A DNA stretch of 18,660 bases. Origin: a virus (Duplodnaviria; Heunggongvirae; Uroviricota; Caudoviricetes). The position numbers and the translations under genes are program-made. Location of the stretch: the IMG/VR virus record IMGVR_UViG_2648501500_000009. One strand, given 5' to 3'. This document shows, piece by piece, positions 14,446 to 14,736 of this stretch (the stretch's first letter is position 1; every line of letters starts with the position of its first letter). A model generated the notes under the pieces. That model did no database searches and was not told the origin of the DNA. It saw nothing but the letters and a program-made list of their open reading frames with translations.

Positions 14446-14736
14446 AGCCTCCTCCCGGGTCCATAACGCACTCAGCCGGGTATGGTTCAGCCCATTTTTC
14501 CCGGCGTCTCATGCCGCAAATGTTAACTGCTGCCTGGTTAACATTTGCTGAAAAAGCCTGTTAACATTTTTTCCACGCAACAAACTGAATAATAAAGATA
14601 AAAACCGCAAAAATGCCCGAACAGCCAGTTAACATGTTAACTGCCCTGAAACGGGAATTTTTTCTCTGCGTGAGACGGGGGGCGGTGTCCAAAGCGATCG
14701 TTTTTTACGCCGGATGATACCCCCCCCGGGGTCGGG
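14446..14736. promoter_or_regulatory. Intergenic region between HNH and TerS; probable cos / terminase recognition region with GTTAAC repeat array
   Basis: 291 bp non-coding with five GTTAAC hexamers (14522, 14537, 14560, 14628, 14636), a perfect 12-bp inverted repeat GCAAATGTTAAC-N9-GTTAACATTTGC (14516-14548) and a GC-rich block GGGGGGCGGTGTCC (14677-14690). In HK97-like phages cos lies between the HNH gene and the small terminase gene. Confidence 0.4.

Follow-up and report, generated by a model that had tools for sequence, protein, structure and literature searches.

In the 291-bp gap between the gene for an HNH endonuclease and the small terminase gene (terS) of a tailed virus (Caudoviricetes; IMG/VR virus record IMGVR_UViG_2648501500_000009), five copies of the palindromic hexamer GTTAAC are gathered just downstream of a predicted cohesive-end (cos) cleavage site, cosN. 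We propose, with a probability of roughly 0.6, that this array is a cosB-like recognition element for the small terminase protein, TerS. Throughout, the window denotes the whole stretch of 18,660 nucleotides that was analyzed. The proposal draws on the statistics of the motif, the identities of the genes, a cos core homologous to that of phages with known ends, the constant placement of the repeats, their covariation with the N-terminal domain of TerS, and their invariance among close relatives. The initial annotation had already suggested that the repeats may be sites for small-terminase (cosB-type) recognition or for a dimeric DNA-binding regulator, and the first suggestion is strengthened by the covariation, by the fixed distance from the cut, and by the independence of the site from the terS start. 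The array is most likely a known kind of cos recognition element that had not previously been described for this phage group, and in the open-access literature no paper was found that links GTTAAC or these repeats to a terminase.

Positions relative to the cut are numbered in the minus-strand direction, where +1 is position 14674, the first nucleotide on the terS side of the predicted cut. The hexamers begin at 14522, 14537, 14560, 14628, and 14636, exactly where the initial annotation placed them, and its interval of 14510-14645 corresponds to +30 to +165, with the repeats themselves spanning +34 to +153 on the terS side. GTTAAC occurs 10 times in the whole window against 2.15 expected, a count reached in 0 of 200 shuffles. 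All five array copies form part of the 8-mer ATGTTAAC, in either orientation, which is found only within 14520-14641, with 5 copies in the window against 0.34 expected and a shuffle maximum of 2 (n = 200). Also present as first described are a perfect 12-bp inverted repeat, GCAAATGTTAAC-N9-GTTAACATTTGC, which encloses two of the hexamers at 14516-14548, and the stretch AGTTAACATGTTAAC with two more, which belongs to a perfect 18-bp palindrome at 14626-14643. The array and the predicted cos region are made up of the following parts:

14720-14727, minus strand: run of eight G, upstream of cos, at -53 to -46 from the predicted cut
14685-14690, minus strand: GGACAC, just before the predicted overhang
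14675-14684, minus strand: predicted cosN, 10-nt 3′ overhang CGCCCCCCGT, by homology to phages with known ends
14653-14674, minus strand: cos core on the packaged side, +1 to +22, CTCACGCAGAGAAAAAATTCCC, with an A-tract at +12 to +17
14626-14643: proximal site pair, palindrome CAGTTAACATGTTAACTG, with GTTAAC at +34 to +39 and +42 to +47
14568-14625: A/T-rich spacer, 65-85% A+T over +61 to +110, with T5 tracts at +62 and +71
14560-14567, minus strand: distal site 3, ATGTTAAC, with GTTAAC at +110 to +115, invariant in close relatives
14516-14548: distal sites 4 and 5 in the inverted repeat, with GTTAAC at +133 to +138 and +148 to +153

Just past the last GTTAAC, an imperfect inverted copy (12/15) of the right flank of cos (14668-14682) is found at 14500-14514 (CCCCCCGTCTCACGC / GCATGAGACGCCGGG), so that the array is bracketed by the flank and its copy, an arrangement that could be due to chance.

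The cos region very probably lies here, with cosN at 14675-14684, because the context of this 10-mer matches that of a phage with a measured end, fEg-Aba01, and that of a phage with deposited ends, Bcep176. On its minus strand the window reads GGACAC-CGCCCCCCGT-CTCACGC, where fEg-Aba01 reads GGACAC-CGCCCCCCAT-CGCACGC. The record of the latter closes with GGACAC followed by CGCCCCCCAT, its last 10 nt annotated as a 3′ cohesive end, and opens with CGCACGCACAAAAAAAATTCCC. As the genome-end passages of its description state, this end was determined with PhageTerm, the cohesive ends were confirmed by heated and cooled restriction digests, and the ends were named HK97-type by the authors (PMC7354433). 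The kinship between the two phages extends to the terminase proteins, with the TerS N-terminal domains 51% identical and the large terminase (TerL) 52% identical in a sister phage of fEg-Aba01 that is itself >99% identical to it. Three GTTAAA repeats begin at +34 in fEg-Aba01, and the first GTTAAC of the window is likewise at +34. The record of the Burkholderia phage Bcep176 (TerL 58% and TerS 37% identical to those of the window) carries the 10-mer CGCACGTTCC at both of its ends, in the equivalent position between its HNH and TerS genes, followed by CTCACGCGCAGAAAATTTTCCC. The exact nick positions in the window phage are thus predictions transferred from these relatives. The initial annotation had looked for cos between the HNH gene and terS, and the homology to fEg-Aba01 and Bcep176 favors this placement, although cosN falls outside 14510-14645, about 30 bp past the end of that interval.

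The cos core is kept across 84 + 105 loci from several bacterial orders, and only 4 of the 33 columns from +1 to +33 vary among 58 close variants. Nearly every related locus, from Acinetobacter to Burkholderia, has a correspondingly placed G-run of 5-8, which could be a cosQ-like element or one used by HNH or TerL. A literature search that included cos data for BP-4795 and Pankowvirus found no end mapping for this phage group, and a search on the overhang sequences returned unrelated papers only. The record of phage phi330 (PV189401.1), which ends at the last terS codons with a note on joined cohesive ends, was considered as evidence of ends inside terS and rejected as merely linearized at the terS/terL boundary: the phi330 genome was put together from restriction fragments that had been cloned, and its paper reports no end mapping, so that the ends of the record are not the ends of the virion DNA. 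Position 1 of one contig (L094, IMGVR_UViG_2681813226_000009) is equivalent to window position 14675, 1 nt from the predicted cut; the sample may have contained linear phage DNA, or the assembly may have broken at a C-run. This start was left uncounted as evidence of the cut, since the C-run could break assemblies and a second contig, L108, is truncated elsewhere, starting at +30. Two close E. coli relatives, L155 and L166, carry the predicted overhang CGCGCCCCCT instead of CGCCCCCCGT, and the cohesive ends of prophages of this family that share a host may therefore not always be compatible.

The position of the site relative to the cut is held constant across distant relatives. Two sets of loci were compared, together about 190: a TerS-alignment set of 80 loci from Enterobacterales, Burkholderiales, Pseudomonas, Xanthomonas, and Acinetobacter, with TerS 28-49% identical and anchored on the cos core, and a scan of IMG/VR with a cos-core pattern that gave 120 loci, of which 105 were usable. 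All 105 usable loci encode a TerL homologue downstream (52-74% identity). The shared plan consists of a G-run at about -50, (G)GAC(AC), a variable 10-mer, C-N-CAC-GC-R-CAGA followed by an A/T run and TCCC, and a GTTAA half-site that begins at +34 to +37, in place of which many Enterobacterales have GTAAAC and then ATGTTAAC. Among loci whose TerS is of the helix-turn-helix (HTH) class, GTTAA or GTWAAC is present near +29 to +42 in 148 of 149 non-redundant cases, with terS starting anywhere from +38 to +229. Over the roughly 190 loci as a whole, a GTTAA(C) site stands at +34 to +47 regardless of how far away terS begins. Site and terS start overlap in most loci, reading GTTA-ATG-GCT-TTA-ACA (Met-Ala-Leu-Thr), and it is ATGTTAAC or ATGGCTTTAAC that forms the start of terS in Salmonella phage FSL SP-016 and the majority of relatives. 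The site nevertheless stays at +34 in 19 non-redundant loci in which the Leu-Thr codons have moved to +53 to +70 and in 10 in which they lie beyond +70, and it is still at +34 in the window, where terS starts at +230 after a 229-bp leader. In two loci (L052, L085) the ancestral ATG is mutated with GTTAA..TTAAC retained and extra copies added, in two more (L203, L206) the site is retained and copies are added, and the lineages with long leaders multiply the site also in L025 and L073. Codon usage follows the same division: about 107 of 120 short-leader loci, those of G+C-rich hosts included, encode the Leu-Thr of terS as TTA-ACN, but none of the 10 long-leader loci does so, nor does the window, and these use CTG, CTC, or CTT instead. 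Because the register is fixed when terS moves, the site is kept when the ATG is lost, and TTA-AC is used only at the overlap, these comparisons indicate that the DNA site constrains the terS codons and not the reverse, with selection acting on the DNA.

The sequence of the repeat, in turn, covaries with the N-terminal module of TerS. The comparison of repeats with TerS among relatives, which the initial annotation had named as a check, was run on the roughly 190 loci with a positive outcome. For the counts, both sets of loci were pooled and duplicate leaders removed, TerS was classed by regular expression, and the interval from +28 to +60 was searched; the counts ignore phylogeny, and the two variant classes probably represent few independent lineages:

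HTH TerS (..AAI.AGYS..): 137 non-redundant leaders, 136 with GTTAA or TTAAC; the exception is L248, with TGTACA
TerS with an AT-hook-like N-terminus: 12 non-redundant leaders, 0 with GTTAA or TTAAC, 10 with AAWTCARA
TerS unclassified by the regular expression: 23 non-redundant leaders, 22 with GTTAA or TTAAC, 1 with AAWTCARA

The TerL of the exceptional locus, L248 (IMGVR_UViG_2816332609_000004), is the closest to that of the window outside E. coli (74% identical). Its TerS is HTH-type, with a Lys in place of a nearly invariant Ile within the HTH (I24K), and its leader holds a TGTACA pair, TGTACATGTACA, at +35 to +46 with two further TGTACA toward terS, which starts at about +161. The layout is that of the window, with a proximal pair, an A/T spacer, and distal sites, built from another palindromic hexamer. 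In the second class of TerS (L182, L192, L201, L246, L267, L270, L276, L279, and others) the C-terminal domain is kept, while the HTH is replaced by MPRGGARPGAGRPKK or by MAGxPGxSGGARxGAGRxKK (AT-hook-like, RPGAGRPKK); these loci have the same cos core, which is adjoined by A/T-rich AAWTCAAA repeats (for example, GGAATTCAAAGAAATCAAAGAATTCAAAGGA). Three versions are thus known: an HTH paired with GTTAAC, a variant HTH paired with TGTACA, and an AT-hook-like arm paired with AAWTCAAA. As judged from these alignments, the cos-adjacent repeat follows the N-terminal module of TerS while the cos core and TerL family are constant, which favors TerS as the protein that reads the repeats.

Among close relatives, the motif is invariant. 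All 38 motif columns are constant across 58 unique E. coli-lineage sequences, whereas 73 of 253 other intergenic columns vary (29%; Fisher one-sided p = 7e-6, with alignment columns taken as independent). In some relatives the 12-bp inverted repeat is variable at its outer arm bases, with no compensating change, as in GAAAAT vs ATTTGC in L155. For this reason it is apparently the (AT)GTTAAC site that functions as the unit, and not a hairpin or the 12-bp inverted repeat that the initial annotation set beside it. A small hydrophobic open reading frame (ORF), MLTGCSGIFAVFIFIIQFVAWKKC, which begins at the ancestral ATG (24 aa; 14561-14635, minus strand), was considered as a gene and rejected as probably a relic. 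It is 24 aa long in 53 of the 58 close variants and frameshifted or read through in the other 5, all differences between the variant translations, compared at the amino-acid level, are replacements, and its ATG at 14635 lines up with the point where terS begins in phage FSL SP-016.

The proposed reader of the GTTAAC sites is the N-terminal domain of the window TerS, which is the most conserved part of the protein and matches Pfam Terminase_2 (PF03592) over residues 2-57, the N-terminal HTH (E = 1.3e-8). A profile of 27 TerS homologues matches small-terminase chains in the PDB over this domain with E of 2e-4 to 7e-4 (Pam5 21di; SF6 G1P 4zc3/3zqp/2cmp; 7joq), where the single window sequence reached only E of 0.18-0.7. 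The terS of L166 (1501-2211) encodes 236 aa instead of 187, because a stretch of about 49 aa in the linker region is duplicated in tandem.

Four known systems offer points of comparison. In phage lambda, cosB is composed of the sites R3-I1-R2-R1, which are bound by gpNu1 and lie between cosN and the Nu1 gene. The likeness to the window is one of arrangement: multiple repeats that covary with the TerS N-terminal domain are present between the predicted cosN and terS, and as in lambda these candidate TerS-binding repeats are short, lie on the terS side of the nick, and form a proximal and a distal group between which the DNA would have to bend. The role would also be alike, that of anchoring terminase for the cut at cosN and for the start of packaging toward the terminase genes. 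However, lambda has a 12-nt 5′ overhang where a 10-nt 3′ overhang is predicted here, its gpNu1 is a winged-HTH protein of another Pfam family (the window TerS is Terminase_2 by Pfam, not Nu1), its repeat sequence is unrelated, it has an integration host factor (IHF) site where the window lacks the IHF consensus, and the window module includes an HNH partner.

HK97 is closer in its packaging module, a cos type with HNH described by Kala et al. (2014), as cited in a passage of PMC11331095. The window shares with it the order HNH, cos, terS, terL, with the HNH gene adjoining the terminase genes and the cos core in between. It also shares an HNH protein (gp74 in HK97), a TerL of the PF03354/PF20441 type with HK97-fold capsid, prohead protease, and portal all present by Pfam, the 10-nt 3′ type of overhang (predicted here), and a recognition element just downstream of the cut, beside an A-tract. 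The difference lies in TerS and its site. The HK97 TerS, which has neither an HTH nor a defined DNA-binding domain and threads DNA through a central tunnel, binds a single 15-bp site with an A-tract at +15 to +29 downstream of the cos cut (PMC11331095), whereas the window TerS is an HTH protein of Terminase_2 and its candidate sites are five repeats over +34 to +153. The HK97-like arrangement that the initial annotation pointed to holds for gene order and for the predicted placement of cos, and does not extend to TerS. The A-tract core at +1 to +22, which is kept family-wide, could be the counterpart of the HK97 site. With fEg-Aba01 the window shares a homologous cos core with a near-identical overhang, the TerS and TerL families, an HNH gene upstream, and GTTAA from +34. 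The two differ in that fEg-Aba01 has three direct GTTAAA over 30 bp in a 72-bp leader and the window five palindromic GTTAAC over 120 bp in a 229-bp leader. The genome-end passages of PMC7354433 do not mention the fEg-Aba01 repeats, and no search there was aimed at them. The G1P-type small terminases of SPP1 and SF6 have an N-terminal HTH of the same Pfam family and are thought to read repeated or bent DNA beside the cut, in contrast to which they belong to headful (pac) Bacillus phages with another TerL, and their HTH binding is reported to be largely sequence-independent.

From these comparisons we infer a mechanism in which TerS is the protein that binds the repeats. A TerS oligomer would dock via its N-terminal HTH domains on the palindromic pair at +34 to +47, setting a fixed distance to the nick, and further subunits of the same oligomer would engage the sites at +110, +133, and +148, adding avidity. 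The 60-bp A/T-rich spacer would act as flexible or bent DNA that links the proximal and distal sites. Docked in this manner, TerS would hold TerL and the HNH protein over cosN, which these two would cut with nicks 10 nt apart to leave the 3′ overhang CGCCCCCCGT, and packaging would then proceed toward terS. The reading of the DNA may be in two parts, with the core at +1 to +22 read by the C-terminal ring of TerS, by TerL, or by HNH, and the repeats read by the variable N-terminal domain.

Several points weigh against TerS as the reader of the array. The SF6-type HTH is the closest solved relative, and the title of a paper cited in PMC11331095 reports that it binds DNA largely independently of sequence. 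No consistent helical phase is shared by the five sites, whose centre-to-centre spacings are 8, 68, 23, and 15 bp, and the A-tract core at +1 to +22 may be an alternative or additional TerS site. A literature search found no binding, footprint, or end-mapping data for the window phage or its close relatives. The statistical support is also open to discount, through the independence of columns assumed in the Fisher test and the shared ancestry behind the covariation counts.

A different sequence-specific protein, in particular HNH, or else a late regulator or a host nucleoid protein, could bind the repeats and bend or organize cos or regulate terS, which we consider unlikely. Palindromic hexamers and one inverted-repeat pair are typical of dimeric regulators, and the HK97 TerS site is nearer the cut, so that the core at +1 to +22 could be the true TerS site. 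Yet the motif switches with the TerS N-terminal module at a constant TerL family and cos core, and, against a host factor, its conservation spans Acinetobacter, Burkholderia, and E. coli. The IHF consensus WATCAANNNNTTR, with at most one mismatch allowed, has no match in 14446-14736. The coding strand has no sigma-70-like promoter, the only promoter-like match in the gap being antisense and made of the motif itself, and no terminator was found there.

Another explanation is that the repeats have no function today and are neutral remnants of an earlier terS start (ATG-TTA-AC, Met-Leu-Thr), left behind and partly duplicated when an insertion of about 190 bp took place. The motif is indeed the start of terS in FSL SP-016 and most relatives, the window ATG at 14635 aligns with that start, and some copies share flanks, such as ATGTTAACTGC, which is present twice. 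We nonetheless regard neutral relics as quite improbable given the complete invariance of the motif columns among the 58 variants, with 29% of columns variable elsewhere, and given the three extra copies of the 8-mer in 190 bp, where about 0.006 would be expected by chance (190 x 2 / 65,536). Independent long-leader lineages (the six loci named above) keep and multiply the site, L248 repeats the layout with a different hexamer, and the three copies in fEg-Aba01 are non-coding. Least probable of all, with a very small chance of being correct, is that the inverted repeats work as RNA hairpins in the late transcript and control the translation, stability, or processing of terS. The minimum-free-energy fold of the leader does contain the 12-bp inverted repeat as a perfect hairpin, but the fold of the leader as a whole is ordinary (z = -1.6; 14 of 200 shuffles fold as well or better), no terminator and no Rfam match at E <= 1 were found, and the outer stem varies uncompensated. 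Relatives also retain the hexamers without a stem between sites, and with the virion DNA cut 150 bp upstream, the element is equally available as DNA.

The minus-strand order of the locus is HNH, the 291-bp gap, terS, and terL, and the flanking genes are those that the initial annotation had called, on the minus strand and with Pfam matches. The HNH gene is labelled HNH or homing endonuclease in records of related phages. The genes of the module are as follows:

14737-15102, minus strand: HNH endonuclease gene, 121 aa, Pfam HNH (PF01844, E = 3.7e-8), the final gene ahead of cos
13882-14445, minus strand: terS (small terminase), 187 aa, GTG start after GGAGGAGG, PF03592 Terminase_2
12224-13885, minus strand: terL (large terminase), 553 aa, Pfam TerL_ATPase and TerL_nuclease
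10223-12160, minus strand: protease-major capsid fusion, 645 aa, Peptidase_S78 and Phage_capsid
8647-10011, minus strand: portal, Phage_portal

The order of terL followed by the protease-major capsid fusion and then the portal (window 8647-12160) is unusual, and a 113-aa ORF (15476-15817) that encodes a TonB C-terminal domain sits between the lysis genes and HNH. From HNH through cos and terS to terL, 93 phage records match the window at 90-99% identity, among them 2851, BP-4795, WGPS2/6, 1717, and phi330, the last of which is classified as Pankowvirus. Nearly all of these records are long-tailed phages that convert for the Shiga toxins (Stx) Stx1a, Stx2a, and Stx2c, together with their relatives, and TerL is up to 100% identical. 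By DNA identity over this region, then, the window belongs with the Pankowvirus-like long-tailed lambdoid or Stx prophages. The gap of 291 bp is found in 1,244 of 5,426 complete E. coli genomes, with 2,945 copies and as many as 7 per genome, and in RefSeq E. coli genomes no annotated features lie under it. Six copies of the region are on plasmid records, and several chromosome records begin or end less than 1 kb from it (NZ_CP107143, NZ_CP124460, NZ_CP184007, NZ_CP182512).

The packaging system described here is very common yet uncharacterized, and the prophage family with this region carries many Stx1, Stx2a, and Stx2c genes. It may be, as a tentative generalization, that the repeats and the TerS N-terminal domain form an exchangeable cassette for packaging specificity on a constant chassis of cos core, TerL, and HNH. 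The TerS site would then dictate the first terS codons in most members, and the shared array in enterohaemorrhagic E. coli (up to 7 copies per genome) would decide the packaging in trans of co-resident or defective prophages, including carriers of Stx and effector genes. Knowledge of the cos cut and the likely TerS sites would allow genome ends to be annotated, induced phages to be linearized correctly, and predictions to be made of the co-resident or defective prophages that share a packaging signal and could be mobilized together. Cos vectors and experiments on packaging specificity would also become designable. The HK97 structure answered how TerS reads DNA only for a TerS without an HTH, and one cos core with three types of repeat matched to three TerS N-termini would provide a test of how HTH-type TerS proteins read theirs.

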